A DNA stretch of 64,000 nucleotides from Escherichia coli (GTDB lineage Bacteria > Pseudomonadota > Gammaproteobacteria > Enterobacterales > Enterobacteriaceae): assembly GCF_050920415.1 (NCBI RefSeq), contig NZ_CP169309.1. One strand, given 5' to 3'. The position numbers and the translations under genes are program-made. How positions within the stretch are numbered: the stretch's first letter is position 1; every line of letters starts with the position of its first letter. The notes under the pieces were generated by a model that saw only the letters and a list, made by a program, of their open reading frames with translations, did not search any database and had not been told where the DNA came from. Below, piece after piece: positions 6,784-33,408 of the stretch.

Positions 6784-6939
6784 CACAATGAACTTCAAGA
6801 CACTTGCTTCGGTATCTGGAAATTATCATTAATTCTGGATGCGACCAGCCTTGCTATATCTGGCAATGTTTCTTCAAAAACGTCGATATTGTATCCCAGA
6901 AATCTCACACACTGCTGAACCGGCATGTTCATTAATTAT

Positions 6940-8544: not shown

Positions 8545-8854
8545 AAGAATCCATTAATTGCTTCTGATATTTTTCATTAATTATTTTTCGCGTATTATTA
8601 TATTAAATTTTATCACTGTTAATATATGTGGGGATTTTTACTCGTAAAAATCCCCGCCTCAATTCCCCAAATCATAATTGATACAGGACACAACTCTAGC
8701 AATGGTATCGTGAATAGTTTTCTTTAATAAGGCACGTCTCAATTCTTGAACATAAATTCGAATTATTTAGTAAAAAAACATCATCCCTGGGAGTATTACC
8801 TATTTTTGTATAATGCTATATTTATAGTAAACAATTCACAAGAAAATATTATTA

Positions 8855-9805: not shown

Positions 9806-10567
9806 TATTAAAAACCAGCGGGTCATGTTTTGATTTTAATTCTTTTGCATTGGCAATTTCTCTTTTTTTTCCCAAATCGTTACTGCTTAATCCACCATAA
9901 TACTGTTCTCCATCCCAGATAATAAAAAGGTGAGATAACTCATGGCATAATGTGGAGACTCGAGAGTTTTCTCCCGTTGGATTTTTACATGTGAAATTTT
10001 GTAAGATATCTATAGATATTCTTTCTCGATACTCTAACTTTAAAAGTTCAGCCTTCGACTTATTTTTATACTCACTACTTTGGTATTGGGGCCGATTTAG
10101 ATCTATATGAGTCGTCTGAGCAGCCGGTATACGGGCTGAACCATTGACTAAATTGGTATAATTTTTAAAATTGCCATATATTAGTTGTACATTATCTTGC
10201 GTTCGAGTTTCAATGATCAAGCTATCACAAATCATGATCATTCTGTAAACCCCCTCTTTTATAAAAGTATGTGCGTCAATATTCTTGGTTTGTGGAGTGA
10301 AGTTCCCATTATTATCTGACTTTTGACAAGGAGCATAGTGTTCCATTGTTATAATAGCATCACCTGGTAATCCAAATATATCTTCAAAATTTTTCTGATC
10401 TGCTGGTGTCCATGCTTCCAGATTTTTGCTCTGATATTCAATACTCGCTTTGTTTCTTCCAAAGCAGGCGTTATCATGTTGTAAAATTGATCAGTAACCT
10501 TTGCTTCTTTTTTACATATATTGCCTTTTTGAGTTACCCCTTGTGAACTTCCTTTGTTATTATTCAT
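9768..10567 (-). pseudogene. frameshifted paralogue of the vgrG-linked HExxH effector
   Basis: N-terminal part in ORF 10349..10582 (KEAKVTDQFYNMI versus KEQKITDHFKIMI in the intact copy), remainder in a different frame 9768..10346 carrying STLCHELSH and NNAYNIEKYFEI; frames differ at about 10346-10351. Confidence 0.5.
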
Positions 10568-10975
10568 AAACACCTCCCTCAATCATATCTATACTTTGAT
10601 GCAATAGCCTGACTTTTATCGTCAGCTCACTGTCAGTGATAAATATTTCCGTATACCCATCCTTATCCGTTTCCCCTCGCGCTTGTGTGCCGTCCTCAAA
10701 AAAGGCAATGTAGCGTGTTTCTGAATACGGTATCCCGTCATCGTCTGTAAAATGAAACTGGAGGGTGTATTTCTCAGGTTCATCCTTATCTTCATTGTCG
10801 TTCCCAGAATCATTTCCATCGCCACCACCGACCCCGCCATTGCCTTGCCCGCCCTCTGCACCACCATCTTTATCACTACCTTCATCCGTCAGTGCCTCCA
10901 GCACGCCCGGTTGCAGTGTCGGTACCGGAGTCCCCGGACTACCCCCACCATTCAGATTTATCTTCGGCCCCCAGG
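10560..10975 (-). pseudogene. vgrG 3' fragment (C-terminal about 135 codons of a second vgrG allele)
   Basis: Nucleotide-level similarity to the 3' end of the intact vgrG (for example CCGTCCTCAAAAAAGGCAATGTAGCG..TTTCTGAATACGGTATCCCGTCATCGTCTGTAAAATG), breaking off at about 10975 where the H-repeat fragment begins; encodes DEPEKYTLQFHFTDDDGIPYSETRYIAFFEDGTQ. Confidence 0.6.
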
Positions 10976-11340
10976 GAAAGATTACGAAAGCCCGCTCCCC
11001 GCAAGGACTGACGCCAGATACTTTCTGTCCATGGCTGCTTTTCGCATCTTACGTCTTAACCCTGCCTTGAATACCTTATCATTCGTCAAAATATTAATAG
11101 CGATGTGCCGTATCCCTGAAAATAATTCTGCTGCATTTCCTCTTCTTATTTTGCAGTCGTCTTCATTCATTACCACGTCCAGACGCCAGTGCAGCTTATT
11201 CTCCACGTGCCCGTGGTTTCGGATTGCTGTGGCGAACTTCTCTGCGGTTAAATCAGCAGAACTGATATAATATCTGACCGTCATTTCTGGCTCTTTCTTT
11301 TGTTCTGCTATTATGGACCGAAAGGAGACTGCCACGCATA
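10976..11340 (-). mobile_element. H-repeat (ISAs1-family transposase) 3' fragment
   Basis: ORF 10982..11335 encodes ...[71 protein letters not shown]..., which I recognise as the C-terminal third of the Rhs-associated H-repeat protein; no intact transposase. Confidence 0.6.
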
Positions 11341-11490
11341 ATTTCTTCAGCCCTTTCCATTCAAACGTGAAATCAATAAGTTCATCAGGGACATCGCAAA
11401 CAATATGAAGACGGATTTCTTCTCTGCCGTGACTAAAATGCGAATTATTTAGTACAAAAAAAGCGGCGCACCTTGTTCTTTCCCAGATTC

Positions 11491-12312
11491 CTAATATGGC
11501 AACTTTAAGTTATCGCCGTCTATACTTATAGAAATTTCATCAGGGGTGACGTAAATAGAATTTTTTTCATCCTCAATTGCCCATAACTGATTAATAAAAA
11601 AGTGTTTTTTTTCATCTAATAACAAATTATCACATGTAGTAAAATTATTAATATCAAAAAGATCATCAGCACAATTAATTTTTAAATTTAAAAAATAAAG
11701 AAAAATATTATTGATTGATTTGAGTGTAAACCACTTGTCATTAACAAATTTATAGCCAGATGATTTTATAAAATAATAATTATCTCCTGGTATAAAGGCA
11801 TACATATCATTTAAGGTTATACTCAACAAAAAACTACGACCTGGTTTAATAGTATTCCACCGTTCAGGATTCGTATTAATTTCAAAAGGACATGAACCAC
11901 CTAAGTAGTCCAACGTGATATTCCCAGAGTTGATTCTGAATGGTTTTTTGCATATTGCATCATATTCATCTCCTTTTCCATCTTTTACTTTCATAGGTAG
12001 ATAATATTTAGAAAAAAAATACGTGGTAGAGCTTTTGTTAGTAAAGGTTATGTTAGCAAAAATCCTGTTATTTTTTTTACTCATAGCTAATTGAGCATTG
12101 ACATCCGCTATATAATTTATATGATTACATTTTTTCTTACACTCATCATAATTTTCGATAGGATAAATTAATGGCCTTCCTTTGATATCTCTCTCAAGCC
12201 CAAACCCGTATTTTTTTATTAAAACCATTTCATCTGCAGTCGATTGAAAGGAATAGAAAAATATAATATTTACGATTGTCATTATTATGATTTTTTTTAT
12301 AGCTTGCAGCAT
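11491..12312 (-). CDS. putative periplasmic immunity protein for the adjacent HExxH effector
   Basis: 273-aa ORF directly downstream of the effector; signal-peptide-like N-terminus [26 protein letters not shown]; paralogous to 8855..9805. Confidence 0.5.
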
Positions 12313-12335
12313 TAATATATTTCTCGACTTATTAG

Positions 12336-13127
12336 TTAATGGAGAAGTGCTTTTTCTAATTCCGCTATTTTTTTCTTAACTAAATTGCTTAATATTTCAT
12401 CATTAATCGAGTCTATCTCACTTTCAATTAATCTTATTTCAAAATATCTTTCTATGTTATATGCATTCTCAAATATTTGATCTTTTTGTTTAGAGATCAG
12501 TTTAGTTGCAATACGGATATGTTCGTCATATGAAACTTCATCCTCTTTGCACGTTGAATATTTATCAGTAGTTGTATAATCCTGTGACCACATACCACCT
12601 TTTTTATTATCCCTATAATACCACTGAATATGAGACATTTCATGACATAAAGTAGCAACATGAGAATCCTTTCCCGTTACTGGATTTTTTTTGCCATCTC
12701 TATACTCAAATTTTGCGCCTATGTTAATTATATAGGGCATATCCTTACTTGGGCTGACGAATGCTGCAAATTCATTACAACCTGTATAATTTATAAAACT
12801 GCTCATTGTTAAATCATTAGCTATAATCATTAATCTTCTCACACCATCCATCATAAGAAATCTAGCATTCATGCGCCTGCCTGTATTATGTCCATATTTT
12901 CTTATATTAACTTCCTTATTTCCTTTAACACCAAAGATCTTACTGAAATCATATTCCTCCTGTGCTCCCCATCTCAAAAGATCATCTGCTCTTTTTATCA
13001 AAACCAACTTTTGTGCCTTACGAGCCTTATCAATCATTATTTTAAAATGATCAGTTATTTTTTGCTCTTTCACACATTCTTCTGGCTCTGGCTTTGGTTG
13101 TCCAGAAGTTTGATTATTATCGTCCAT
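12336..13127 (-). CDS. putative T6SS effector, zincin-like metallopeptidase (HExxH motif), vgrG-linked
   Basis: HEMSH in ATLCHEMSHIQWY; no signal peptide; probable start MDDNNQ at 13127 overlaps the vgrG stop by 11 bp; conserved C-terminal ENAYNIERYFEI shared with the paralogue. Confidence 0.55.
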   Translation of the reverse strand: MDDNNQTSGQPKPEPEECVKEQKITDHFKIMIDKARKAQKLVLIKRADDLLRWGAQEEYDFSKIFGVKGNKEVNIRKYGHNTGRRMNARFLMMDGVRRLMIIANDLTMSSFINYTGCNEFAAFVSPSKDMPYIINIGAKFEYRDGKKNPVTGKDSHVATLCHEMSHIQWYYRDNKKGGMWSQDYTTTDKYSTCKEDEVSYDEHIRIATKLISKQKDQIFENAYNIERYFEIRLIESEIDSINDEILSNLVKKKIAELEKALLH

Positions 13128-15522
13128 AGTGTCCTTCCATTGAGAGAAAATCATCATTCGCAAATAGCAACTTCACTTTAATTTCATGTTTGCTAGATAC
13201 AAAAAAACGCTCTGTATACCCCTCTTCATCCGTTTCTCCGCGGGTCTGCGTGCCATCCTCAAAGAAGGCAATGTAGCGGGTTTCTGAATACGGTATCCCG
13301 TCATCGTCTGTAAAATGGAACTGGAGAGTATATTTTTCAGGTTCATCCTCATCGTCACCTCGATCATCACCACCACTTCCGGTCACGCAGTTCCCTCCAG
13401 AGTTTTCATTTTCTTCTCCGGAATCACTGCCATCACCACTCTTCTCATCCCCCAGTGTCTTCAGCACCGCCGGTTGCAGCGTCGGTACAGGCGTCCCCGG
13501 ACTGCCTCCCCCGTTCAGATTTATCTTCGGCCCCACTATATCCACGCCCCCTGAATGGATGACCACAAACGAGCCACCCAACTTCAGGCTTATCCGGCTG
13601 CTGCTCTCCAGCACGATATCCCCGTCCACCTTTATCCCCAGCGCACCACTCACCTTCCTCGCCAGGTCGCCTTTCACCTCCAGGCTGTGTTTTCCCTCCA
13701 CCAGGCTGATGTGGTTTCCTGTCGTTTTGTGCTCCTGCTTCCCTTCCACCGTCACCTTTCGGTCGTTTCTGACGTACAGACCGTCATCGTGGCTGACGTT
13801 CACCCGCCGGTCGTTCGTCACCTTCAGCGTCTGGTCGTTGCGCACCGTGATGCTCCGGTCATGGGCCACCGTGATACTCTGGTCGTGGCCCCCTTCTTTT
13901 CTGGTGCCGACCTCAACCGTCTGCCCCTTCACCACCCTTATCTTCTGGTCGTTACCGATGGTCTCCGTATGGTCATGCTTCACGTCCGTCGTCCGGTCGT
14001 TAAGCACCTCCGTGTCCATGTTCTTCTGCGCGTGGATATACACCTGCTCACTGTCCGTCGCATCCTCGAAACGCAGTTCATTAAAGCCGCTTCCTTTATA
14101 GGTCTTCGAGCGGATGGTCATCTGCGTCCGCGTGCCCGGTAAATCCCCCGGTGAACGGTTATCTTCATGGTAGGTCCGCCCCGTCACAATGGGCTGGTCC
14201 GGGTCTCCGTTCAGAAAGTCCACTATCACTTCCTGACCCACACGCGGTATCGCCAGATTGCCGAACCCCGGTCCCGCCCATGCCTGCGACACCCGTATCC
14301 AGCATGAACTCTCCTCCGTCATCCCGTGATAACGGTCCCAGTGAAACTTCACCCGTACCCGGCCATGCTCGTCGCAGAATATCTCCTCGCCCTTCGGCCC
14401 GGTCACGATGGCACTCTGCGGGCCGTCCACCTTCGGCTTCGGCAGCGGCGCGTGACGCCACGTCCTGTCTGCCGGTATCACCTCAAACTGGTTACTCAGC
14501 GTCGTCCCTTCACCGTGACTGCCGTGCAGCGCCTGCGGCTGTTCTCCCCGCAGTGTGCTTCCCACAACCTGCCATTCCCGGTTCAGCGTATCCGACGGGT
14601 GACCCGACAGGGTAAACCGCGTTCCCGGCCACAGCCGCGCCGTGTTACACACCCCGCTCGCCGTCTCCGCCCCGTTCCGCCACCCTTCCGTCTGGTAACG
14701 CGCAAAATCCTGGCCATGCTGCTCATCCTTGAAACGCCCCGGATAATCAAATATCTCGTACTGCGTTCCCTGCCCGTTCAGGCTCTCCCCGTCATGGCTG
14801 TAGTACCCCGGCCACCCCGGCACTTTAAACGTATAATCCTGCGTCTCCACCGACGCCACGCTTATCTGCGCACGGTAACGAAACTCACTGATGTACTCCG
14901 TCGTTCCCCCGGTCGTCGTGTTCGGGTTAAACGCCAGCGCCCCCATTCCCGTCAGCCCCGCCACGTCATCACACACCGCCAGCTTCTGTTCCGGCCCGTC
15001 CTGACTGCAGCGTTCATAAAAGAAGATACCTTCCTCCGCCCACAGCCGGGTCAGGAACGCCAGGTCGCTCTCCCCGTACTGCACGCAGAACTCCCGCGCC
15101 GGATGGTCTTCATAAAACAGCGGCATCCACGCCGTCACCCCGTTCTCTCTCAGAAGCTGTGCTGATATCGTCCCGATGTCCTGCTGCTGGAAGATACGGA
15201 AGTTCTGCCGTAACCCTGCCCGCCACAGCGGCGGGCTGATGCTCAGGGAATAACGCATCTGCCAGTCGTTGTTCTCACCGAGCTGCACCTCCGTCACGAT
15301 ACCGCTGACGTAACGCTGTGCAGTGTCGCCCTGCCAGACCGTCAGCACCGCGCTTTTCTCCAGAAAATCCTCCGCCGTCAGGTCGGACAGCCCGCTGGCG
15401 ATATCCACATCCAGGATGAACGGTGTGCAGTGGTGCTGGTACAGACGGAAGCTCACCACCGCCGTCGCCATCTCCACGATGTCGTCCACCGACAGCGTGA
15501 AACGTAATCCTTCTGAGGACAT
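13117..15522 (-). CDS. vgrG: T6SS spike protein VgrG with C-terminal extension (Gly/Asp/Glu-rich linker plus TTR-like adaptor domain)
   Basis: gp27/gp5-like core (LRFTLSVDD..., octapeptide beta-helix repeats KIRVVKGQTVEVGTRKEGGHDQSITVAHDRSITVRND...); likely start MSSEGLRFTL at 15522 (ORF track begins at 15555). Confidence 0.85.
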   Translation of the reverse strand: MSSEGLRFTLSVDDIVEMATAVVSFRLYQHHCTPFILDVDIASGLSDLTAEDFLEKSAVLTVWQGDTAQRYVSGIVTEVQLGENNDWQMRYSLSISPPLWRAGLRQNFRIFQQQDIGTISAQLLRENGVTAWMPLFYEDHPAREFCVQYGESDLAFLTRLWAEEGIFFYERCSQDGPEQKLAVCDDVAGLTGMGALAFNPNTTTGGTTEYISEFRYRAQISVASVETQDYTFKVPGWPGYYSHDGESLNGQGTQYEIFDYPGRFKDEQHGQDFARYQTEGWRNGAETASGVCNTARLWPGTRFTLSGHPSDTLNREWQVVGSTLRGEQPQALHGSHGEGTTLSNQFEVIPADRTWRHAPLPKPKVDGPQSAIVTGPKGEEIFCDEHGRVRVKFHWDRYHGMTEESSCWIRVSQAWAGPGFGNLAIPRVGQEVIVDFLNGDPDQPIVTGRTYHEDNRSPGDLPGTRTQMTIRSKTYKGSGFNELRFEDATDSEQVYIHAQKNMDTEVLNDRTTDVKHDHTETIGNDQKIRVVKGQTVEVGTRKEGGHDQSITVAHDRSITVRNDQTLKVTNDRRVNVSHDDGLYVRNDRKVTVEGKQEHKTTGNHISLVEGKHSLEVKGDLARKVSGALGIKVDGDIVLESSSRISLKLGGSFVVIHSGGVDIVGPKINLNGGGSPGTPVPTLQPAVLKTLGDEKSGDGSDSGEENENSGGNCVTGSGGDDRGDDEDEPEKYTLQFHFTDDDGIPYSETRYIAFFEDGTQTRGETDEEGYTERFFVSSKHEIKVKLLFANDDFLSMEGHYGR

Positions 15523-15805
15523 ATAAACCCCATAGCTACCGCACTCATGGTGCAAACCCTACAGAATTATAAGAAAGACTTAAGTGAGATATCCGTCAGA
15601 TAGCAACTATTAGGAAAATATTTATATACATTTCATGAATACATTCATTAATACCGAGATGTTTTTGTCTATATAAACAGAGCAAGCTAACGTCCTCACT
15701 CCATGAAAGAAACTACGTAGGGGCCTTTCGGTCCATAACAACTTTTTCCCTGTTATATCCTGACGTTCTGGTCTACTGGTGTAGTCATGCATATTGCAAC
15801 GTTCT

Positions 15806-15915
15806 ACCCATGGAAAGATAAATAAAGCCAGCTCTCCGCAAGGACTGAAGCGAGGTGCTTTCTGTCCATAGCTGCTTTTCGCAACTTACTCCTTAACCCA
15901 ACACTGAATTTCTTA
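15806..15915 (-). mobile_element. short H-repeat (ISAs1-family) 3'-end remnant, direct repeat of 10976-11065
   Basis: About 110 bp about 85% identical to the 3' end of the H-repeat fragment at 10976..11340 (..CCGCAAGGACTGA..CTTTCTGTCCAT.GCTGCTTTTCGCA..); encodes ..[25 protein letters not shown]. Confidence 0.45.
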
Positions 15916-16055
15916 TGATTTGTCACAGTATGAACTTTTAATTTCATACATTGCTCTTTAGTCAATAGAAGAAAAATAAGCACCCTCTCCCAAACGACAC
16001 AAATAACCTGCAAATGGGAAATGACTTATTACTTAGAAATTTGCAGAGATATAAA

Positions 16056-16337
16056 TCACGAGATATATCCACCTTTTGAGTTAACAGTTACAGACGTTAT
16101 AACATTATCTTTTATCCAGATATCAACAAAAAAGTCCTTACCACAATAAAGACATTCACAATATCCTTCAGAGATAAAGTTGTCCTTAAGTTTATTTCTG
16201 GTTATATTAATAAGTTTATCGCCAGGATTGTAATGTACTAAATTTCCAGATGGCACAAACATCTCAATTTCACACTGTCCTGACGTTCCACATCGAGGGC
16301 AAACGCACCATGCTTTCAATAAATCATAATTCGACAT
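16056..16337 (-). CDS. hypothetical Cys-rich zinc-ribbon-like small protein
   Basis: 93-aa ORF with two Cys clusters (CVCPRCG and CECLYCG); located between ybbP and vgrG. Confidence 0.35.
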   Translation of the reverse strand: MSNYDLLKAWCVCPRCGTSGQCEIEMFVPSGNLVHYNPGDKLINITRNKLKDNFISEGYCECLYCGKDFFVDIWIKDNVITSVTVNSKGGYIS

Positions 16338-16387
16338 TATATTACCTTAATTTATTTCACATCAGCATCCCCCCTTGCAAACCACAA

Positions 16388-16744
16388 CTAAACTATTCCC
16401 ATAAAATACAACGAGATAATTTTACTGTTAAACGTACATTCACAAAACTCAGGGGAAGAAAAATGACCATCAGTCAAAAATAAAGATAGTTTGCTTAGTG
16501 CGTAATCAATTGAATCAAGCGACAAGTATAATTTTATTACTAGTGAGTTCTGTATCAGGACATCATTTTCATTGGGGGATTGTAAAAGTAATAAATTTTT
16601 ATACGCTACAGGTGATCTGTTTTCCAGTCTAATAGGTTTGCTTGCTTCCGTCTCCAATAAACTATAAAGAGCACAAACCATCTCATGAGCATCATCTTTC
16701 TCAAAATGTAAATGAAACCCGCCCAGAGATTTATTAGCAATCAT
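16388..16744 (-). CDS. hypothetical protein
   Basis: 118-aa ORF from the ORF track in the AT-rich island flank; no recognisable motif. Confidence 0.3.
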   Translation of the reverse strand: MIANKSLGGFHLHFEKDDAHEMVCALYSLLETEASKPIRLENRSPVAYKNLLLLQSPNENDVLIQNSLVIKLYLSLDSIDYALSKLSLFLTDGHFSSPEFCECTFNSKIISLYFMGIV

Positions 16745-16841
16745 AATACGTTTCTAAAGTTGATTTGAAATTTTGCATTTCATGCTCATCAAAAAAATAA
16801 ATATATTTTAACTACAAAGCAAACATCACAGCGCATAGCGG

Positions 16842-17057
16842 TTAATATTCTACCTTAACGACTTTCATTCCTCTTTCAATCATACCATTAATTAATTGAT
16901 AATACTCTTTATCCCCTACATCTACTATTAGAATATGTCCGGTAAGTTCATTGATGAATAAATACTCAGGTTCCTCATCTGTACCAGCATTTGAAATAAC
17001 CCAACCTGGATCAGTACCATCTATAAAAAACTCCCACTCTTTAAAATTAACACTCAT
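16842..17057 (-). CDS. hypothetical small acidic protein (possible orphan immunity protein)
   Basis: 71-aa ORF, compact acidic protein, AT-rich context next to a polymorphic-toxin island. Confidence 0.3.
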   Translation of the reverse strand: MSVNFKEWEFFIDGTDPGWVISNAGTDEEPEYLFINELTGHILIVDVGDKEYYQLINGMIERGMKVVKVEY

Positions 17058-25842: not shown

Positions 25843-25844
25843 CG

Positions 25845-25915
25845 CGTCTTATCACACCCGGAAATCTGTACTAAAAATCATGCCGGATAAGGCGTTTACG
25901 CCGCATCCGGCATAT
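25845..25915. repeat. REP palindromic units downstream of ybbJ
   Basis: ATGCCGGATAAGGCGTTTACGCCGCATCCGGCAT matches the REP consensus. Confidence 0.55.
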
Positions 25916-25933
25916 AGCCGAGTAGTGGCAAAA

Positions 25934-26296
25934 TTACTCTTCCCGGCCTTTCCCCATACTTTTTTGGTCTTCATCCGGATAGTGTTTTTTTAGATATTCC
26001 AGGACGTTTTTATTGACCTTGTGTTGCGTATACACCCACCCTTTCCAGTAATCAGGCTGGTCCAGATAAACTTCTGGCGGAATGGTGAAATCAGAAAGCG
26101 TTAACCATTCGGCTAACAGATCGGGGTTTCGCTTCTGGATCAACTGCAACAGCATGATCAGCGACATGGCAGAGGCAGGAGCCGTACTATCGCCACTTAA
26201 ATATTTCCACACCGTTGATCGGTTCGAACGAAAAAGGATGGGAAGCAGCGCCCGGTCCAGATTCATTTCATTAAAAATCTTCTCAAATTCATTCAT
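25934..26296 (-). CDS. hypothetical protein (strain-specific insertion between ybbJ and cueR)
   Basis: 120-aa ORF; not part of the K-12 ybbJ-cueR junction as I recall it; function unknown. Confidence 0.4.
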   Translation of the reverse strand: MNEFEKIFNEMNLDRALLPILFRSNRSTVWKYLSGDSTAPASAMSLIMLLQLIQKRNPDLLAEWLTLSDFTIPPEVYLDQPDYWKGWVYTQHKVNKNVLEYLKKHYPDEDQKSMGKGREE

Positions 26297-26661
26297 TTAA
26301 TTTTCCTGCCTGGCGTAAACCTCTTAAAAATTGAGATTTATCAAAGAAACGCATTTTAGCACACATCAGGAACTGCTTCACGTTTAGTCCAGAAACAGAA
26401 TTTATTTCGCTTATCAAAACAAGTCTTTACTCTTTTTTACATTGAAAGAGCACGAAATGATTTCCTTTTTTATTTATATGAGAAACCATTTTTGTTTCTT
26501 ATTGATGGCGTTTACGCTTACACCAGACAAAAATGCGCTTTACATCACACAAATGGCGGCGTAGATTTCGATTAAATTGCAACGTAGTTTATTTCTTAAA
26601 ACAATATTATTTGTTTCTTATAGAAACATTAATGCGACTTATTTTGAACAAGAGAAAATGA

Positions 26662-27678
26662 ATGAAAACTGTAAACGTAGCTTTACTGGCACTCATAATT
26701 TCAGCAACATCCAGCCCTATTGTTTTAGCTGGTGATACCATTGAAGCGGCGGCAACAGAGCTTTCAGCCATTAACTCTGGCATGTCGCAATCGGAGATTG
26801 AGCAGAAGATTACCCGCTTTTTAGAACGCACCGACAACAGCCCCGCTGCATATACCTATTTGACTGAACATCACTACATCCCTTCTGAAACACCTGATAC
26901 CACTCTGACTCCCCCTGTCCAGACAGATCCTGACGCAGGACAAAAAACCGTTGCCGCTACAGGTGATGTACAGACAACCGCCCGTTATCAGAGCATGATC
27001 AACGCCCGACAGTCTGCGGTAACTGATGCCCAGCAAACGCAAATTACAGAGCAACAGGCGCAGATCGTAGCCACACAAAAAACGCTCGCCGCGACTGGAG
27101 ATACGCAAAATACCGCGCATTATCAGGAGATGATTAATGCCAGGCTGGCGGCTCAAAATGAGGCTAATCAGCGCACTACCACTGAACAAGGGCAGAAAAT
27201 GAATGCGCTGACAACCGATGTGGCAGCACAACAGCAATATGAAAGGACTCAATACGATAAACAAATGCAAAGTCTGGCGCAGAAGTCTGTCCAGGCACAT
27301 GAGCAAATTGAAAGTCTGAGACAAGATTCCGCACAAACGCAGCAACAGTTAACCAACACCCAAAACCGGGTCGCTGATAACAGCCAGCAAATTAACACGC
27401 TCAATAACCATTTCGATTCGCTGAAAAACGAAGTTGAGGACAATCGTAAAGAAGCCAATGCGGGAACTGCATCTGCCATCGCTATCGCCTCACAACCACA
27501 GGTGAAAACCGGTGACTTGATGATGGTGTCAGCGGGAGCGGGAACGTTCAACGGTGAATCTGCGGTGTCTGTAGGAACATCTTTTAATGCCGGAACGCAT
27601 ACGGTACTTAAAGCAGGTATTTCTGCGGATACACAATCTGATTTCGGTACGGGTGTCGGCGTGGGATATTCGTTCTAA
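26662..27678 (+). CDS. mini trimeric-autotransporter-like protein (signal peptide, Gln-rich coiled-coil stalk with internal repeat, YadA-type C-terminal anchor)
   Basis: N-terminal signal peptide MKTVNVALLALIISATSSPIVLA; C-terminal AGTASAIAIASQPQ...GDLMMVSAGAGTFNGESAVSVGTSF...KAGISADTQSDFGTGVGVGYSF follows the YadA/Hia/Eib anchor pattern with terminal aromatic residue; repeat KTVAATGDVQTTARYQSMINAR / KTLAATGDTQNTAHYQEMINAR. Confidence 0.6.
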   Translation: MKTVNVALLALIISATSSPIVLAGDTIEAAATELSAINSGMSQSEIEQKITRFLERTDNSPAAYTYLTEHHYIPSETPDTTLTPPVQTDPDAGQKTVAATGDVQTTARYQSMINARQSAVTDAQQTQITEQQAQIVATQKTLAATGDTQNTAHYQEMINARLAAQNEANQRTTTEQGQKMNALTTDVAAQQQYERTQYDKQMQSLAQKSVQAHEQIESLRQDSAQTQQQLTNTQNRVADNSQQINTLNNHFDSLKNEVEDNRKEANAGTASAIAIASQPQVKTGDLMMVSAGAGTFNGESAVSVGTSFNAGTHTVLKAGISADTQSDFGTGVGVGYSF

Positions 27679-27731
27679 TTTTAACAGCAATTTCTTATTC
27701 GCAATTTTCCGTACATTATTTAAGGTTAACA

Positions 27732-28154
27732 ATGATGAATAGCTCCATTAAATCGTTTTCCCTGCTGGCGGTTATATTACTGGCTGGCTGTAGTTCACCC
27801 ACTTCCCGCATCGCAGATTGCCAGGCGCAGGGCGTCAGTCATGATACCTGTTATCTCGCAGAACAACAGCGTCAGACGGCTATTTTAAGTGCATCCGAGG
27901 CGCAGGCATTTAAAAATGCAGAAGCCGCACAACATGCCCAGGCGGCAAAGAAAGCCATTTATAAAGGATTTGGCATGACCTTTAGAATGAGCAGTAAGAA
28001 CTTTGCTTATCTCAATGATTCATTATGTGCAATTGATGAAGACAATAAAGATGCCACTGTTTATCAGTCAGGTCTTTATAACGTCATTGTTTATCACCAC
28101 ACGGGAAAAGTCGCCTTAATGAAGGAAGGTCAGTTTGTGGGTTATTTAAAATGA
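27732..28154 (+). CDS. putative lipoprotein
   Basis: Signal peptide with lipobox LLAGC (MMNSSIKSFSLLAVILLAGCSS); stop overlaps the next start (ATGA). Confidence 0.5.
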   Translation: MMNSSIKSFSLLAVILLAGCSSPTSRIADCQAQGVSHDTCYLAEQQRQTAILSASEAQAFKNAEAAQHAQAAKKAIYKGFGMTFRMSSKNFAYLNDSLCAIDEDNKDATVYQSGLYNVIVYHHTGKVALMKEGQFVGYLK

Positions 28155-28357
28155 AGGAGCAAAGGAAAATCCCCCTGACGCATATTATGATTATCGGTGC
28201 GTTTATTTTTGCCTTCTTACAAGTGGTGTTATTAGCCTCCCTGGTTCACGCTGTGAATGTTAACAACGAAATCCAGGAAGGCTTATTTCAGTCGGGGCGC
28301 ATTATGGTAGAAAGTTTGCAGCATATTCTGTCTGTGCAACCGGTGATTAACGGGTAA
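28151..28357 (+). CDS. small single-pass membrane protein
   Basis: 68-aa ORF with one hydrophobic helix IMIIGAFIFAFLQVVLLASLV; translationally coupled to the lipoprotein gene. Confidence 0.3.
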   Translation: MKEQRKIPLTHIMIIGAFIFAFLQVVLLASLVHAVNVNNEIQEGLFQSGRIMVESLQHILSVQPVING

Positions 28358-28439
28358 GAGCACCGCTTCCATTTATAGAGCAATAGTCACCAGCGTAATT
28401 TTCTGGCACAGTTCAGGGAACTGAAATTTTGGCTAAGGA

Positions 28440-29669
28440 GTGGCCATGCTTTTTCCCTTTCGAAAACCTGAAGTACGTCTGCTGAAAAATACCGCTGCGG
28501 GCGTCATTTTTTCGGTGAAGTCAGGTAAAGGATTTCTGCGTCAATGTGTGATTTACGATCCGCACCCTTATGGGCTTATCCGTTCGCTCTGCTGGCAGGA
28601 TGTCCCGTTAATACGTTTCTGGTCCGAGGCTGGCTGCCCCACCTGTGCGGAATTTGTCTACAGCGGTTTTGCGGATGATGAACAGGGAGCCGCCCGGTTT
28701 TTGTCTGCTCTCGAAAACTGGAATCGCCCGTGGTCTGGCATGACGGACGCTTTTGCCGCGCTGACACCGCTGTTCTCATGCATGGCTGATGGCTATTATC
28801 TGCTCGAAGATCGTGAACTTTACCCGACGGATGGCAACGGGCATTTCTTTTGGGCGGCAACGGACCATAGCGCCAGTAATCCGGCGACCGTTGCCGTCTG
28901 GGATCCTGAATATTGCTATTTCAGTGACACCGCCCCCTGTTTTCTTCTACCCGGCCAGCCGCCATCACATTTTAATCCTGAGCGTGCGACGTTTTATCGC
29001 GATAAACCGGACGCCCGCGCTCTGGCCTGGTATCTCCCTGATTCCTATCTCTGCGTTCTGCTCGACGGACACCATAAAGCAACAGCCGCCGCGCTGGAAG
29101 GGCGACCGCTCAAAACACTGGTGCTCAGCACGGCAACCCATTTTAATGATGAGCAACAAACCCTGGTATTTCCGGGCGGAGAATGTCTGCACAAAACAGA
29201 GCTACTGTGCCAGGTTCCCAAACTCACTGAGTGGAAAACATTACCGCCCGGCGCATGGGAGAGTTTCGGCCCTGATAAGCACATCAGCCCATCCGAAACC
29301 TGGTCAGAAGAGTTGCAGCAGAGCGTCAGTCGGTACCCTTCACTGGATCAAGCCTGGCAAATTGTTGAGGCCGGGAATTTGAGCGAAGCTCGTATTAAGC
29401 GCATGATCCAACAAGGTTTGGAGGGGGATGAAAAGGCTGATGTTATTTTGCAGGCACTGTTTTCCACATACTCGCCGCTTTTTGTTGACTTTGCTCGATT
29501 CGTTATCAGCCATCCGGCATACGCCATTTATCGCCCTCTCACCTTCCGGTTGATGGCGCAAAACCGAACGCCGCAAGCAGATGCTTTTTTTCTGGATTTT
29601 GCCATCAATGATGACGGCGAACGTCCGGAGTTGACGAAAATAATGGACGACTATTTTCGCAAGCCTTAA
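28440..29669 (+). CDS. hypothetical cytoplasmic protein (409 aa, Trp/Cys-rich), unknown function
   Basis: Long ORF with an SD-like AGGAG upstream; ends exactly at the cueR stop (convergent); no motif I can assign. Confidence 0.45.
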   Translation: MAMLFPFRKPEVRLLKNTAAGVIFSVKSGKGFLRQCVIYDPHPYGLIRSLCWQDVPLIRFWSEAGCPTCAEFVYSGFADDEQGAARFLSALENWNRPWSGMTDAFAALTPLFSCMADGYYLLEDRELYPTDGNGHFFWAATDHSASNPATVAVWDPEYCYFSDTAPCFLLPGQPPSHFNPERATFYRDKPDARALAWYLPDSYLCVLLDGHHKATAAALEGRPLKTLVLSTATHFNDEQQTLVFPGGECLHKTELLCQVPKLTEWKTLPPGAWESFGPDKHISPSETWSEELQQSVSRYPSLDQAWQIVEAGNLSEARIKRMIQQGLEGDEKADVILQALFSTYSPLFVDFARFVISHPAYAIYRPLTFRLMAQNRTPQADAFFLDFAINDDGERPELTKIMDDYFRKP

Positions 29670-30077
29670 TCACCCCGCTCGATGATGACAGCAGCCGGAG
29701 AGATTTTCGATAATTGGGCAGTCGGCGCTGTCATCACCGGGGCAGGCATTCGCCAGCGCCAGTAGCTGGTCGCGCATGGATTGCAGCTCCTCAATGTGCC
29801 GTTCGATCTCCGCTACCTTCTCCAGCGTACGACGTTTGACGTCGGCACTGTGACGCTGCGGATCGTTAAACAGATTCACCAGTTCGCCGCTCTCTTCCAG
29901 GTTAAAGCCCACCTGGCGCGCCTGGCGCAGTAAGGTCAGTTCGTTGAGATGCTGCTGCGTGTAGGTTCGATAACCATTTTCGCTGCGCATCGGCGGCGTC
30001 ACTAGCCCCTTTTCTTCATAGAAGCGAATGGCTTTGCTGGTCAGGCCGGTAATTTTTGCTACATCGCTAATGTTCAT
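29670..30077 (-). CDS. cueR: MerR-family copper-responsive transcriptional regulator
   Basis: 135-aa [29 protein letters not shown]... with C-terminal metal-binding Cys pair (CPGDDSADC), matching recalled CueR. Confidence 0.92.
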
Positions 30078-31249
30078 CGTTCGCGCAACGCCTCCTGTGC
30101 TTTGTTAAAGGGTTTCAACAGATAATCCAGCACGCTTTTTTTGCCGGTGCGGATATCGACCGTCGCCACCATGCCGGGAAATATCGGAAACTGCTGTTTA
30201 TGTTTATTTTCCAGATGGTTGCTGAAAGTGCGAATGTACACCCGATAGTAATAAACATCGCGTCGCACTTCATCCTGCACGGTGTCTGGTGATATCACCG
30301 CCACTTCCCCCGGCAGGCCGCCGTAGATGGAGTAGTCGTAAGCGGTTATTTTCACCAGCGATTTTTGCCCCGGATGGATAAACGCCACATCGCGGGGGGA
30401 GATTTTTGCCTCGATCAACAGTTGCTCATCCAGCGGCACGATAGTCATAAGTTTACCACCGGGGGCGATGACGCCGCCAACCGTGGTGACGTCAATGTCC
30501 TGAACAATGCCTCGCACCGGCGCAGTAAAGTTGAGCCGGGTGAGAGAATCTTCCCGCCCGCGGATCACCGAACGCTGGGTTTCCACTTCCGCATTGGCTT
30601 TCGCTAACTCTTCCCGCGCCTGTACGTAGTATTGCGTACGCACGTCGCTAAGTTTGTTTTCCAGTTCATTGGCCTGGCGTTGCAGGCGCAGCACTTCAAC
30701 GCTGCTCGCCGCCCCCTGTTTCACCAGCGGCTGGGTCATCGCCAGTTCGCGGTTGACCAGGCTGATCCCCTGCGTCAGCCCGGTGGTGGCTTTGTTCAAC
30801 CCGTCGCGGCGAGTGTTATATAACGCCGTTTCCGACTCGATAAGTTCGGGGAATTTATTCAGTTCGTCAGGAAAGACCAGCGGTTTATTGCTCACTTCTG
30901 CCCGCAGCCGCGCCGAGGTTGCCAGCGCCGCATACAGCCGCGACATCGCTTCCTGGACGTCGGATTCCGTTTTGGTGCGGTTAAGCTGCGCCAGCGGCTG
31001 CCCCTGTTCGACAATATCGCCAACCTTCACGTCGAGATGATACAAAATCCCGCCTTCCAGCGACTGCACCACCTGTTCGCGTCCAGAAGGTTCTACCGTG
31101 CCGCTGCCGGTGGTGACTTCATCAAGCTGGAAGTACCACGCCCAGCCGAGAAAACAGAGCAGCATCACAGCGGTAACGCGCACCGCCAGCGCCGAACGTG
31201 GCAGGCGGGGTTCAGTCAGGCCACGGTTGTATTGCAGTTGTCCGTTCAT
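30074..31249 (-). CDS. type I secretion periplasmic adaptor (HlyD-family membrane fusion protein)
   Basis: 391-aa ORF with N-terminal TM segment, coiled-coil and beta-barrel domains; overlaps the ABC gene by 4 bp. Confidence 0.85.
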
Positions 31250-33408
31250 GCGGCAGACCCCTTATTCTTCTCCTGCAACACCACGCGTCGCGTCGTGGGT
31301 TCGCCCTGTTCACGCAAAATGGTCTCTTTCGCGCCGTCCATCACAATGCGCCCCTGATCCATCACAATTATCCTGTCCACCAGTTGCAGCATTGCCGTGC
31401 GGTGAGTAGCGATGACCAGCGTGCGATGCCCAATCCACTGTTTTAGTTGTTCAATTAAATACGCTTCCGCCATTTCATCCAGCGAGGCACTGGGTTCATC
31501 GAGCAGGACGATATTGGGTTGAGAGATGAGCAGCCGCGCCAGCAGCAGCGTTTGCCGCTGGCCGCCAGAAAGACCAAATCCCCCTTCCTGAATCATGTAG
31601 TTAAGGCCGTTTTTCTGCTTCTGCACAAACGGCAGCGCCCCGCTGAGGGTCAACGCGCGTTCGATATCTTCATCGCTGGCTTCTGGCATCCCCATGGTGA
31701 GATTTTCCCGCAGCGAACCGAAGAACAGTCGCCCAGTCTGGCTCAGCAGCCCCATGTCGCGGCGCAGATCCGCCGGATCAAGTTGCCCGATGCTGATGTT
31801 ATCCAGCAGCACCTGCCCCTGCTGGGCGATACGCATTCCGGCGAGCATTTGCAGTAGCGTTGATTTACCCGCGCCGTTGCGCCCGAGAATGGCGATTTTC
31901 TCTCCGGCCTGAATGTTGAGTTTGCCGATCGCCACATCGGCAATCTTCTCTTCTTCGTCGTAATAAAACACCGCGTTGCTGAACTGATAATTTCCGTGCA
32001 GCACTGCTTTATGCACCAGTTTGCCGTGTTCCGGCTGATCCACCGGGCGCTTCATCAGTTCATCAAGGCCATTACGCGCCACTTTCGCCTGCTGCCAGCG
32101 CGAAAGCACGCCGGATATCTGCGACAGCGGCGCAATGGTGCGCGAAGCCAGGATCGTCGTCCCGACCAGCGCGCCGGTGGTCATGTCGCCGCTCATCACC
32201 ATAAAGCAGCCCACCAACAGCACCACCACATAGACGATGGATTGCACTTCCTGCGTCCAGGTGAGCAGCAGCCCGGTGAGAAAACGTTGCTTCATACTGA
32301 TGGACGAGGCCACGTCGTTGGTGTGATTCCACTGATTCTGGAAACGCTGTTCAGCACGCAGCAGTTTAATGTCTTCAATCGACTGCACGGCCTCGACAAG
32401 CGTAGCGTTGCGCACTGCCGATTCGCGCATCCCTTCGTTCGCCAGCCGCGCCAGCGGGCGTTGCACCAGCAGGCCGGGGATCACCAGCAACGGCAGCGCC
32501 AGCAAAACAACCAGCACCAGCCAGCCGCCGATCATCCACAGAATAAAAACAAACAGCAGGAAGAACGGCAGATCCGCCACCGCGCCAATGGTGGTGGAGG
32601 TGATCAGCTCCCGCACCGATTCCAGTTCGCGGATCTGTGAGATAAACGATCCGGTGGATTTCGATCGCACGTTATTTTTCAGCCGTAATGCGTGACCAAA
32701 CACGCGATCCGAAATACGCAGATCCGCCCGTTTGCCGATCACATCGGAAAGGTGTGTGCGCACCATGCGCATACAGAACTCAAACAGGATCGCCATCATC
32801 ACCCCGGCGAACAGCACCCATAGCGTCGGGTAGGACTGCGCCGGAACAACGCGGTCGTAAACCTGCATCGAGAAAATCATCGCCGCCAGCGCCAGCACGT
32901 TCGCCACCAGCGAGGCCAGCATAATATCGCCATAGCGCCGCCAGTCTTTTAGCGAAAGATTCCAGAACCAGTTAGCCTGATACGGGCGAATGTAGTCATC
33001 CACCCGCGCATCGGGGATGGCGCTGAGCGGGCGCAGTAGCGCCAGTTCAACGATTTTGTCTTCTATATCCGTGACGTTTAGCGTAGTTTCCAGCCCTTCG
33101 TCACCGCTGAACTGAACGCTGATATTATCGTGATTGTCGCGGCGGGTGATCACGCCAATCTGTTGATTATCAAACACCGCGATCAACGGCAGACGCCAGG
33201 GGTTAAGCGAATCAGTGGAAAACTCCACCAGCCGTAGCCCCATCCCCAACTGCCGCGCCATGTCGGTGAGCAACTCTTCCCGCTTGCTGTCGCGCTCCCA
33301 GTTGACGGTCGCGCGCACGTTCTCCTGGGAAAAATCGAGGCGGTAATAACGCGCCACGGCGATCATCGCCTCCAGCCAGGCTTCCACGGACTGGGCATTT
33401 TTTTTCAT
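31246..33408 (-). CDS. type I secretion ABC transporter (N-terminal C39-like domain, permease, ATPase)
   Basis: 720-aa ORF with Walker A GRNGAGKST, signature LSGGQRQ and Walker B LLDEPSASLD; about 130-aa N-terminal extension typical of HlyB-type exporters. Confidence 0.88.
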   Translation of the reverse strand: MKKNAQSVEAWLEAMIAVARYYRLDFSQENVRATVNWERDSKREELLTDMARQLGMGLRLVEFSTDSLNPWRLPLIAVFDNQQIGVITRRDNHDNISVQFSGDEGLETTLNVTDIEDKIVELALLRPLSAIPDARVDDYIRPYQANWFWNLSLKDWRRYGDIMLASLVANVLALAAMIFSMQVYDRVVPAQSYPTLWVLFAGVMMAILFEFCMRMVRTHLSDVIGKRADLRISDRVFGHALRLKNNVRSKSTGSFISQIRELESVRELITSTTIGAVADLPFFLLFVFILWMIGGWLVLVVLLALPLLVIPGLLVQRPLARLANEGMRESAVRNATLVEAVQSIEDIKLLRAEQRFQNQWNHTNDVASSISMKQRFLTGLLLTWTQEVQSIVYVVVLLVGCFMVMSGDMTTGALVGTTILASRTIAPLSQISGVLSRWQQAKVARNGLDELMKRPVDQPEHGKLVHKAVLHGNYQFSNAVFYYDEEEKIADVAIGKLNIQAGEKIAILGRNGAGKSTLLQMLAGMRIAQQGQVLLDNISIGQLDPADLRRDMGLLSQTGRLFFGSLRENLTMGMPEASDEDIERALTLSGALPFVQKQKNGLNYMIQEGGFGLSGGQRQTLLLARLLISQPNIVLLDEPSASLDEMAEAYLIEQLKQWIGHRTLVIATHRTAMLQLVDRIIVMDQGRIVMDGAKETILREQGEPTTRRVVLQEKNKGSAA

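Follow-up and report, generated by a model that had tools for sequence, protein, structure and literature searches.

The Escherichia coli gene described as the flagellar activator GmrA is predicted to encode a small trimeric autotransporter within a conserved four-gene cassette

Trimeric autotransporters (TAAs; type Vc) such as YadA, Hia and AtaA combine a signal peptide with a coiled coil that runs into a four-strand YadA_anchor with an aromatic end, and they contain coiled-coil layers with Asn at position d. A head domain is typical of TAAs, yet it is not defining. Short E. coli TAAs are represented by Eib and Saa, which have long coiled coils, vary in repeat number and are associated with mobile elements; a YadA-like head and neck is present in Eib. 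At the other end of the size range are the giants UpaG, EhaG and SadA, which use the same secretion type and the same anchor family, are encoded by chromosomal adhesin genes and carry many head/neck repeats. Grin et al. are said to have described in 2014 that SadA of Salmonella is a TAA whose surface display is aided by a co-encoded lipoprotein, SadB. A protein of a quite different kind is GmrA (Z0639 of strain EDL933), which Yang et al. 2018 (PMC5826968) described as a cytoplasmic, fliA promoter-binding activator of flagella. Neither a signal peptide nor an autotransporter nor YadA is mentioned in that paper, and reviews from 2021-2024 repeat the account, listing GmrA among the transcription factors encoded on O-islands of EHEC O157:H7.

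The protein analysed here has 338 aa and is encoded at 26662..27678 on the plus strand of the window, by which we mean the whole stretch of 64,000 nucleotides that was studied. The ORF spans exactly 26662-27678, with 26662 being the first start codon past an in-frame stop. The gene belongs to an E. coli chromosome and lies in O-island 29 (OI-29), between ybbJ and cueR. It is the ortholog of ECs0548/Z0639/'gmrA', and the protein shares 94.7% aa identity with ECs_0548 of O157:H7 Sakai (Z0639 in EDL933). The OI-29 copy in the window is a 3.8-kb chromosomal islet without an integrase, and it bears an additional 409-aa gene that the O157 island lacks. RefSeq lists this CDS, in a genome that is 100% identical, as a 'YadA C-terminal domain-containing protein'; further labels are YadA-family adhesin (RefSeq), adhesin (UniProt) and 'Saa-like protein' (Ogura 2007). 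The type of protein is ordinary, and with its existing annotation as a YadA-family adhesin it is a putative adhesin. The earlier note had also considered short TAAs of this kind to be frequently prophage-borne. For the copy at 26662-27678 a prophage origin was rejected, since the islet contains neither an integrase nor a phage gene and its flanking core genes are neighbours in K-12; the description does hold for diverged cassettes, which are found in prophage-like elements.

This gene is Z0639, the one named GmrA by Yang et al. (PMC5826968). The deletion, cloning and qPCR primers of that study map exactly onto the ORF, covering its borders, start codon, last codons and interior. The lambda-Red arms end at 26661 and resume at 27679, and the complementing fragment begins at 26343, which means that it includes 319 bp of an AT-rich regulatory region. 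The assignment to Z0639 of EDL933 follows from the position of ECs_0548, the 94.7% identical Sakai copy, in OI-29. The literature searched by subject yielded no named E. coli TAA for the ybbJ-cueR locus, and GmrA surfaced only via its locus tag. Gene and island are thus the same as in the published work, but the protein, a cytoplasmic activator there, is by sequence predicted to be an exported outer-membrane trimer here.

At the N-terminus, residues 1-23 (26662..26730, +) constitute a predicted signal peptide, MKTVNVALLALIISATSSPIVLA followed by GDT, with a predicted cleavage site VLA/GD. As judged by eye, a basic n-region with K2 leads into a hydrophobic core, and the cleavage site shows V at -3 with A at -1; the peptide is kept in all homologs, where the site reads SAFA/GDT, and AF2 assigned pLDDT values below 50 to these residues. 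At the C-terminus, residues 279-338 (27496..27675, +) make up a YadA-type anchor of four beta-strands with the end GVGYSF. Pfam YadA_anchor (PF03895) matches exactly these residues over its whole model (1-60/60, E 1.5e-11), and when the whole protein was compared with the PDB by phmmer, the anchors of AtaA, Hia and YadA were the sole matches. The AF2 model consists overall of a 174-residue helix and a four-strand sheet, the anchor strands being located at 287-296, 299-309, 314-323 and 328-336. Foldseek comparison of this model with the PDB gave significant matches only to Hia (3emo/2gr7/2gr8), AtaA (9vnj) and YadA (2lme), with a probability of 1.0 and target-normalised TM values of 0.66-0.75. 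Both the signal peptide and the YadA/Hia/Eib-type C-terminal anchor that the earlier note had read from the sequence were therefore borne out.

The stalk runs into the anchor as a canonical heptad coiled coil, which was delimited by heptad analysis and AF2 to residues 184-278 (27211..27495, +). One heptad phase was obtained for all windows starting at 182-259, giving a single unbroken register over residues 182-278, and the 3.5-residue periodicity had a power of 1.25 as compared to ≤0.33 for other periods. The a/d positions are hydrophobic or Asn, with two N-at-d layers in VADNSQQ and VEDNRKE. In the AF2 model the helix of residues 148-276, which is continuous with the anchor, reaches pLDDT 96. 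The preceding part of the stalk consists of two 45-residue repeat units identified by local alignment: unit 1, residues 94-138 (26941..27075, +), opens with QKTVAATGDVQTTARYQSMINAR and unit 2, residues 139-183 (27076..27210, +), with QKTLAATGDTQNTAHYQEMINAR, each followed by helix. Residues 94-119 and 139-164 are 73% identical at the aa level and 68% at the nt level, and the alignment score of 117 far exceeds the 31 ± 6 of shuffled sequence (z ~14), which confirms the internal duplication reported previously. In an alignment of 12 repeat units, A6, G8, D9, Y16, Q17, M19, A22 and A26 (numbering of the 45-residue unit) are invariant; a profile search against the PDB found no solved relative of the repeat. 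The stalk helix starts at residue 103, directly after the ATGD motif of repeat 1, and its sole break in the model, at residues 146-147, falls within the TGD motif of repeat 2. The start of repeat 1 is overlapped by a Pro/Thr-rich linker (residues 76-102; 26887..26967, +), which is predicted to be disordered, with pLDDT 31-34 and no secondary structure assigned by AF2. This is the site where longer alleles hold an extra stalk cassette of ~120-130 aa. With 18% Q, 15% A and 12% T in residues 95-278, the stalk is Gln/Thr/Ala-rich, as had been described. However, the coiled coil of about 230 residues proposed in the earlier note was too long, since AF2 and heptad analysis delimit a helical stalk of ~175 residues (103-276), ~95 of which are canonical heptads.

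Residues 24-75 (26731..26886, +) form a three-helix domain, the helices spanning positions 27-35, 43-56 and 61-69 of the full-length protein. Modelled alone by AF2, the domain reached pLDDT 87 and pTM 0.71, and 20 of its columns are invariant among 13 variants. In the models it is likely to be the distal tip, or cap, of the fibre. Foldseek found no match for this domain in the PDB (best E 3.3). In AFDB50 only E. coli adhesins were matched at E≤0.006, including D3GVC4 of EAEC 042; three Serratia fonticola proteins followed at E 0.5-0.7, but with probabilities of 0.99-1.00. Given that there was no PDB match and that AFDB50 returned only its own family, the domain is not an HTH, nor is it any TAA head known so far. 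It also heads two further TAAs, namely P0131 (708 aa) and the 633-aa TAA of locus L009. When the N-terminal domain and the repeats were searched with HMMER over 1.84 billion cluster representatives, only 16 matches were obtained, and the family is therefore narrow. One of the 16 is a 3490-aa repetitive protein, a match that we judged to be compositional. The protein had been called headless at the outset; this is correct insofar as no known head family (YadA_head, Hep_Hag, Trp-ring etc.) or connector domain scored in Pfam, even at E≤10, but it overlooks the conserved and confidently modelled domain at residues 24-75.

Pfam, the PDB sequence search, AF2 with Foldseek, the heptad analysis and the RefSeq annotation all agree, and we therefore assign the protein to the short TAAs. 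Every test that was run is in line with the architecture outlined in the earlier note, i.e. a signal peptide, a coiled-coil stalk and a YadA-type anchor. The protein shares with YadA, Hia and AtaA the signal peptide, the coiled coil leading into the four-strand anchor, the aromatic end and the N-at-d layers. It departs from them in lacking all catalogued head, neck and connector domains; its disordered linker instead bears a three-helix cap specific to this family, and its 45-residue repeat has no solved relative. Unlike UpaG, EhaG and SadA, which are about five times longer (1778 aa in the case of UpaG), it lacks head/neck repeats.

Very probably, then, the gene encodes a small type Vc TAA with a fibre, a cap and an associated cassette, and the GmrA phenotype is indirect. 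According to established TAA biology, the 23-residue signal peptide would direct Sec export, BAM would assemble three C-terminal anchors of four strands each into one 12-stranded outer-membrane barrel, and the passengers would thread out via this barrel and zip into a trimeric fibre. From the membrane outward, such a fibre would comprise the ~95-residue heptad coiled coil with its two Asn-at-d layers, the two 45-residue repeats, the ~27-residue Pro/Thr linker and a cap made of three copies of the family-specific three-helix domain, with a reach of roughly 26 nm plus the linker. Each repeat opens with an invariant A-x-G-D...Y-Q-x-M motif, at which the helix would be broken and the register shifted; the monomer model and the likeness to a published consensus suggest that A-x-G-D may be a beta-layer-like connector. 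Judging from the sequence, the TAA most likely forms a fibre on the cell surface that serves in adhesion, autoaggregation or protection, with the cap and the strongly constrained repeat region as candidate interaction sites. O157:H7 lacking OI-29 adhered normally to HeLa and Caco-2 cells (PMC5826968), and an adhesin role is therefore not evident in this LEE-dominated assay.

The TAA gene is part of a conserved four-gene cassette, which consists of a divergent HTH-like gene (~120 aa), the TAA gene, a lipoprotein gene and a gene for a membrane protein of ~65 aa. The divergent gene (25934..26296, -) encodes 120 aa and is, by ORF and homology analysis, the ortholog of O157 Z0640/ECs0549, with 119/120 residues identical to Sakai ECs_0549. 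Its product possibly contains an Xre-like HTH, although the matches were weak (Xre-like-HTH E 0.047; HTH region of MqsA_antitoxin E 0.12). The lipoprotein gene (27732..28154, +), ortholog of Z0638/ECs0546, encodes 140 aa with the lipobox LLAGC/SS and a conserved Cys pair, 139/140 residues being identical to the Sakai protein. It is followed by a gene for a predicted single-pass membrane protein of 68 aa (28151..28357, +), which overlaps the lipoprotein stop by 4 nt and whose sequence exists in Sakai, unannotated. Single-sequence and profile searches of Pfam, NCBIfam, PHROGs and the PDB returned nothing significant for the lipoprotein or for the 68-, 120- and 409-aa proteins.

The cassette recurs in other Enterobacteriaceae, at times within recombinase-bearing elements. 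Homologs of the lipoprotein and of the ~65-aa and ~120-aa proteins are located beside very different TAAs in an E. coli prophage, Pseudocitrobacter, Enterobacter and a metagenome contig. Homologs of the 120-aa gene lie divergently upstream of the TAA gene in loci L012 (74% identity) and L009 (45%), and homologs of the 68-aa protein come after the lipoprotein in the same two loci (47% and 38%, respectively). Lipoprotein homologs with 40-66% identity were found at most two genes downstream of, or adjoining, a YadA_anchor gene in L004/L005, L009, L011 and L012. Linkage of lipoprotein and TAA was thereby observed in four of the five sampled lipoprotein contexts, L010 being the exception. This arrangement resembles that of SadA-SadB in Salmonella, in that a TAA gene and a gene for a small lipoprotein are conserved together and transcribed the same way. 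Here, however, the lipoprotein gene lies downstream of the TAA gene rather than upstream, and the small membrane protein and the divergent HTH-like gene are added. Furthermore, the lipoprotein showed no similarity to PDB chains, among which SadB would be expected if present in the searched copy. By analogy to SadB-SadA, it is plausible that the accessory genes control or aid the display of the TAA on the surface, and the lipoprotein would face the periplasm.

The published role of GmrA is doubtful, as it does not fit the sequence. It holds that GmrA is a cytoplasmic activator which turns on the flagellar genes through direct binding to the fliA promoter, any TAA-like features being irrelevant or misleading. 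In its favour, motility, flagella and fliA/fliC/motA transcripts were lost in the gmrA and OI-29 deletion mutants, untagged gmrA on pACYC184 complemented the motility defect, deletion of gmrA orthologs acted alike in eight strains, and expression in K-12 raised motility (PMC5826968). Moreover, His-tagged GmrA shifted a fliA promoter fragment in EMSA but not flhD or rpoS fragments, and ChIP-qPCR enriched PfliA with GmrA (PMC5826968). The ORF fixed by the primers nevertheless begins with a Sec signal peptide and closes with a complete YadA-type anchor for the outer membrane, predictions that argue against a cytoplasmic location, and no DNA-binding domain was found in GmrA by Pfam, NCBIfam, the PDB sequence search or Foldseek of both models. 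The best coiled-coil matches were non-significant: TMF_DNA_bd at residues 203-252 (E 0.088) and SMC (E 6e-5, 21 bits versus a cut-off of 567). A match of the TMF_DNA_bd type may be the source of the CDD-derived 'putative DNA-binding domain' in the paper. In addition, the EMSA protein carried the pET28a N-terminal tag ahead of the signal peptide and the ChIP protein a 3xFLAG behind the terminal Phe; tags on both targeting signals would be expected to block targeting, so that both experiments would have used mislocalised GmrA. The complementing fragment, for its part, brought the 319 bp of regulatory region along with the gene. Taken together, we consider direct activation of fliA by a cytoplasmic GmrA very unlikely; for an exported TAA, the motility phenotype would be an indirect effect of a surface/envelope protein and not of promoter binding. 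The specific EMSA and ChIP signals at PfliA, the complementation by the untagged gene and the agreement among eight strains are unexplained by a purely structural surface-fibre model. A further possibility, in our view rather doubtful, is that the motility phenotype is real and borne by the outer membrane: a mobile 'surface-fibre cassette' of TAA, lipoprotein, membrane protein and HTH-like protein would then feed back on fliA and the flagella, and the accessory proteins would be a new TAA-dedicated biogenesis/signalling set distinct from SadB. If true, this would represent adhesin-to-flagellum cross-talk in an unusual, activating direction. Still more exotic is the variant in which a second, signal-peptide-less product starting at Met41 would act in the cytoplasm.

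The distribution of the gene bears on two other readings, namely that the protein is an Eib/Saa-type factor or that it is a decaying remnant. An Eib/Saa-type TAA, of the Ig-binding or serum-resistance kind suggested in the earlier note, would be acquired via a prophage or plasmid, and its coiled coil would bind Ig Fc or confer serum resistance or autoagglutination. The size class is near that of Eib and Saa (392-535 aa), the 'Saa-like' annotation dates from 2007, residues 100-338 are matched by PHROG families of 'adhesins' carried by phages (E 4.5e-21), diverged cassettes occur in prophage-like elements, and OI-29 is enriched in pathogenic lineages (PMC5826968). However, no EibD passenger structure appeared among the PDB sequence matches even at E≤1, the YadA-like head/neck of Eib is missing from the 338-aa protein according to Pfam, and phage and plasmid TAAs align only to its C-terminal 26-41% (at most residues ~202-338, with a best coverage of 38-41%; 34-58% identity), i.e. 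to the anchor and the last coiled-coil segment. The examined E. coli plasmid TAAs align to residues 250-338 at 38% identity; the one inspected has 767 aa. The gene was found in 1381 of 5426 complete E. coli genomes (about a quarter), including O157:H7, O55:H7, O145:H28, K1 meningitis strains and APEC, and all 1384 places are chromosomal, none being on a plasmid. In the comparisons with the EibD structures and with phage and plasmid TAAs, an Eib-like function found no support in the passenger, and we regard the Eib/Saa reading as unlikely. On the remnant reading, the gene would derive from a longer TAA by truncation, its distal stalk and its function both being lost. Alleles range from 325 to 717 aa and have in common the N-terminal domain and the C-terminal ~245 residues, the stalk cassettes being different; most Escherichia relatives, at 456-717 aa, include a ~130-aa cassette that is missing from the 338-aa form. 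Yet the short allele is the commonest (1027 genomes at ≥80% coverage and 95-99% identity; 1187 member sequences in its 90%-identity cluster), the ORF is intact in ~1000 complete genomes, and the signal peptide, cap, both repeats and anchor are retained in frame. The gene is also transcribed (RPKM 96 in DMEM; PMC5826968) and under purifying selection, with an overall dN/dS versus the O157 allele of 0.28; no part of the gene has a lower value than the repeat region (0.06), and the anchor has 0.10. Decay is accordingly extremely improbable. Gain or loss of stalk cassettes between alleles of a functional TAA would change reach and antigenicity.

If GmrA is indeed an exported TAA, the direct-binding model of fliA activation needs re-examination, and about a quarter of the complete E. 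coli genomes carry an uncharacterised surface fibre, a possible adhesin or antigen. The lipoprotein and the small membrane protein would in that case become a candidate TAA helper system. The value of the finding lies in the corrected function and in the definition of the cassette.

Presumed promoters for both the TAA gene and the divergent 120-aa gene are located in the intergenic region 26297..26661 (31% GC). Its GC content of 0.312 contrasts with 0.526 across the whole window. Promoter and terminator scans gave matches no commoner than in shuffled sequence, and this includes the single sigma-70-like site at 26539-26567. The three OI-29 genes were co-repressed upon contact with HeLa cells (PMC5826968), which is in keeping with the cassette.

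The open reading frame (ORF) at 26662-27678 (+) encodes 338 amino acids, 26662 being the earliest start codon past an in-frame stop. The window is 100% identical to the chromosome of E. coli strain MFDS1022581, in which RefSeq labels the identical CDS 'YadA C-terminal domain-containing protein'. Residues 279-338 matched YadA_anchor over the full length of the Pfam model (E 1.5e-11), and the PDB matches of the protein (phmmer) were solely anchors of trimeric autotransporters (TAAs), namely AtaA (9vnj), Hia (2gr7/3emo/2gr8) and YadA (2lme). As read from the sequence, the N-terminus, MKTVNVALLALIISATSSPIVLA followed by GD, is built like a Sec signal peptide, and the C-terminal GVGYSF is a typical outer-membrane beta-signal. 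An AF2 model built from a 21-sequence family alignment (mean pLDDT 70.6, up to 96 in the stalk) left residues 1-23 unstructured and showed three short helices at 27-69, disorder at 76-102, helices at 103-145 and 148-276, and four strands at 287-336. Its only significant Foldseek matches in the PDB were the membrane anchors of Hia, AtaA and YadA, each with probability 1.0. These data upheld the earlier note's description of a real ORF with a signal peptide and a YadA-type C-terminal anchor. The evidence best supports a small autotransporter of type Vc, predicted to form a surface fibre of ~26 nm, with adhesion, autoaggregation or protection as possible roles. This TAA is a protein of an ordinary kind, for which an annotation as YadA-family adhesin already exists; its interest lies in the conflict with the published function of GmrA and in a conserved four-gene cassette.

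The passenger had been described as headless, with about 230 residues of coiled coil including a duplicated segment. Indeed, residues 94-119 are 73% identical to residues 139-164, with a local alignment score of 117 versus 31 +/- 6 in shuffles. Coiled coil is also present, but the canonical heptads are limited to residues 182-278, which follow a single unbroken register with strong 3.5-residue periodicity and a/d pairs M/L, I/L, L/T, V/N, I/L, F/L and V/N, including two V-x-x-N layers. Residues 95-181 are helical in the AF2 model, but lack a stable heptad phase and consist of two 45-residue units, each opening with K-T-x-A-A-T-G-D...Y-Q-x-M-I-N-A-R; in a 12-unit alignment, columns A6, G8, D9, Y16, Q17, M19, A22 and A26 (unit numbering) were invariant. 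In the monomer model the first stalk helix begins directly past the first ATGD, and the sole stalk break (residues 146-147) falls within the second. By this model, and by resemblance to the published beta-layer consensus of alpha/beta coiled coils, [aliphatic]-A-T-K-[polar]-[DE] (PMC4786415), we infer that the AATGD motif may be beta-layer-like. A PDB search found no solved structure containing the repeat. As for the head, Pfam detected none of the catalogued TAA types, yet residues 24-75 form a conserved three-helix domain of their own (pLDDT 87 and pTM 0.71 when modelled in isolation), so that the TAA is not a bare stalk; this small domain is the likely distal cap, joined to the stalk by a Pro/Thr-rich tether. 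Foldseek retrieved no structural match to the domain in the PDB (best E 3.3), and its AFDB50 matches were limited to E. coli members of this adhesin family, such as the 717-aa D3GVC4 of EAEC 042, and three Serratia fonticola proteins (E 0.5-0.7 yet probability 0.99-1.00).

The TAA family is a narrow one, with 16 matches to residues 24-176 among 1.84 billion cluster representatives scanned exhaustively by HMMER. Relatives, nearly all from Escherichia and 325-717 aa long, have the signal peptide, cap and last ~245 residues in common; their lengths differ by one or two added stalk cassettes of ~120-130 aa, with two or three repeat copies. Among the 16 matches, a 397-aa TAA (P0128) contains this repeat twice and has a different N-terminus, and a 708-aa TAA (P0131) has the same cap and a different stalk. 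P0124, a huge repetitive surface-type protein (3490 aa) with a C-terminal transmembrane segment, matched the 153-residue query at its residues 37-127 (~60-150 of the TAA), in 15 stretches with 33% identity and E 5e-14, which is probably compositional or helical-repeat similarity. The last coiled coil and YadA anchor of the TAA also matched, at 38-47% identity, the C-termini of proteins from virulent phages such as Escherichia ECML-606-1, Yersinia fHe-Yen8-01, Pantoea LIET2 and Salmonella SKML-39. The phage proteins bear the annotations tail protein, adhesin or receptor-binding protein, and an outer-membrane anchor-like module is puzzling in a virion protein.

In K-12, ybbJ abuts cueR, whereas in the window 3.8 kb is inserted between them (25843-29669). 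This islet comprises a divergent 120-aa gene (25934-26296 (-), ortholog of Z0640), a 365-bp intergenic region of 31% GC, the TAA gene, a 140-aa lipoprotein gene with an overlapping 68-aa membrane protein gene, and a 409-aa orphan gene (28440-29669 (+); RefSeq start 28446). It contains no integrase or phage gene, and the suggestion that the TAA is prophage-borne therefore fails for this chromosomal copy. The TAA interpretation was thus largely right, with three corrections: a cap, a shorter canonical coiled coil and a location outside a prophage. The O157:H7 Sakai islet holds ECs_0549, ECs_0548 ('adhesin') and ECs_0546 ('lipoprotein'), and the 409-aa gene is missing there. That gene lies between the cassette and cueR, its stop codon abutting that of cueR, and has a GC content of 52.6% versus 44-48% in the cassette. 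Its product matched nothing in Pfam, NCBIfam, PHROGs or the PDB, and its exact sequence, read from the GTG start, was absent from a collection of 15 billion proteins.

The lipoprotein served as probe for the cassette in other genomes, since conservation among its homologs exceeds that among the TAA passengers. Of the five contexts read, four had a lipoprotein homolog (40-66% identity) that adjoined a YadA_anchor gene or lay at most two genes downstream of one. A metagenome contig (L012) carries, between fetA and qmcA, a 111-aa divergent gene, a 363-aa TAA, the lipoprotein and a 67-aa protein; in Enterobacter asburiae (L011) the homolog is near a YadA_anchor gene; Pseudocitrobacter faecalis (L009) has two tandem TAA-like genes with a serine recombinase nearby, and a serine recombinase is also present in an E. 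coli prophage in qmcA (L004/L005). Homologs of the 120-aa protein were 74% (L012) and 45% (L009) identical, and those of the ~65-aa protein 47% and 38%. These recurring, co-conserved neighbours therefore define a mobile four-gene cassette, of which the TAA passenger is the most variable part. The accessory proteins had no match in Pfam, NCBIfam, PHROGs or the PDB, except for weak Xre/MqsA-type HTH hints in the 120-aa protein.

Several features of these loci were observed in passing. The prophage-like element (L004 3413-13194; L005 1155-10906) has a large serine recombinase, leaves qmcA residues 113-305, and encodes a paralogous 397-aa TAA (38% identity, two AATGD...RYQ repeats) and a lipoprotein homolog (55% identity); its host strain also retains the islet between ybbJ and cueR, where the TAA allele is a long one. 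In L009 (801-4532), TAA-like genes of 633 and 588 aa precede the lipoprotein; the 633-aa product has the three-helix N-domain, and the 588-aa product has no Pfam anchor match on record, yet ends in ...SLSVGW. Several lipoprotein homologs (L004 8243-8698, L012 5001-5471, P0176, P0182) contain a natural run of four to six His (e.g. AGHHHHHHAS) in the linker that joins the N-terminal region with the Cys pair to the beta-rich C-terminal region, which could be a metal-binding insert; the window lipoprotein has no such run.

In reviews up to 2025, the only TAAs listed for E. coli are UpaG/EhaG, Eib and Saa. ECs0548 was labelled a 'Saa-like protein' in 2007 (PMC2323221), and Z0639, the middle gene of O-island 29 (OI-29), was named GmrA in 2018 and reported to activate transcription by binding the fliA promoter and to be needed for flagella and motility (PMC5826968). 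Judged by the published primers, gmrA and the ORF at 26662-27678 are certainly the same gene, because the lambda-Red homology arms match 26623-26661 and 27679-27716, the pET28a primer starts at the ATG of the TAA (ATGAAAACTGTAAACGTAGCTTTA), the 3xFLAG primer joins the tag directly past ...GVGYSF, and the qPCR primer corresponds to the anchor region (27477-27496). The text of that paper mentions no signal peptide, autotransporter or YadA, and took the 'putative DNA-binding domain' from a CDD prediction (PMC5826968). In our scans, the only DNA-binding-type match to the TAA was to TMF_DNA_bd at residues 203-252, a coiled-coil hit short of significance (E 0.088), plus SMC noise; our guess is that this was the source of the domain call.

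That GmrA acts directly as a transcription factor is poorly compatible with the TAA sequence, and we consider it highly improbable. In the published constructs, the tag of the EMSA protein precedes the signal peptide and that of the ChIP protein follows the terminal Phe, and both would be expected to block normal export and insertion; the untagged complementing fragment also includes 319 bp of the AT-rich upstream region. The motility phenotype may well be real and indirect. The 120-aa gene, co-conserved with the TAA and the only cassette member with an MqsA/Xre-like HTH signal (E 0.05-0.12), would be a more natural candidate regulator than the TAA, and deletion of its O157 ortholog Z0640 is reported to have no effect on motility (PMC5826968). 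The three OI-29 genes were all expressed in DMEM and jointly shut off upon HeLa contact, which fits a co-regulated cassette, and adherence of the delta-OI-29 mutant to HeLa and Caco-2 cells was unchanged (PMC5826968). An Eib-like immunoglobulin-binding role, put forward in the earlier note for short TAAs, has no support in the sequence and seems quite doubtful. A decaying remnant is likewise unlikely in view of selection and prevalence. Over the whole gene, dN/dS relative to the O157 Sakai allele was 0.28; by segment it was 0.06 for the repeats, 0.10 for the anchor and 0.44 for the heptads. This indicates purifying selection on the gene, most strongly on its repeats. Furthermore, of 5426 complete E. 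coli genomes, 1381 carry the gene, chromosomally in every case; in 1027 of the 1381 the match has a coverage of 80% or more and an identity of 95-99%.

The far side of cueR is occupied by a type I secretion system (HlyD adaptor, ABC permease/ATPase; 30074-33408 (-)) and then by a giant gene of ~20.8 kb (33412 to beyond 48808 (-)), annotated 'BapA-related adhesin SiiEA', whose syntenic locus in O157 and EAEC 042 has been described as a frameshifted RTX-like exoprotein (PMC2808357). With the TAA islet on its other side, cueR thus sits between two accessory surface-protein islands. A further accessory region between mnmH and ybbP (6273-17057) contains IS2, an ISAs1 transposase fragment, about eight hypothetical genes and an orphan T6SS vgrG (13117-15522); in O157 Sakai, rhsD is located beyond ybbP.
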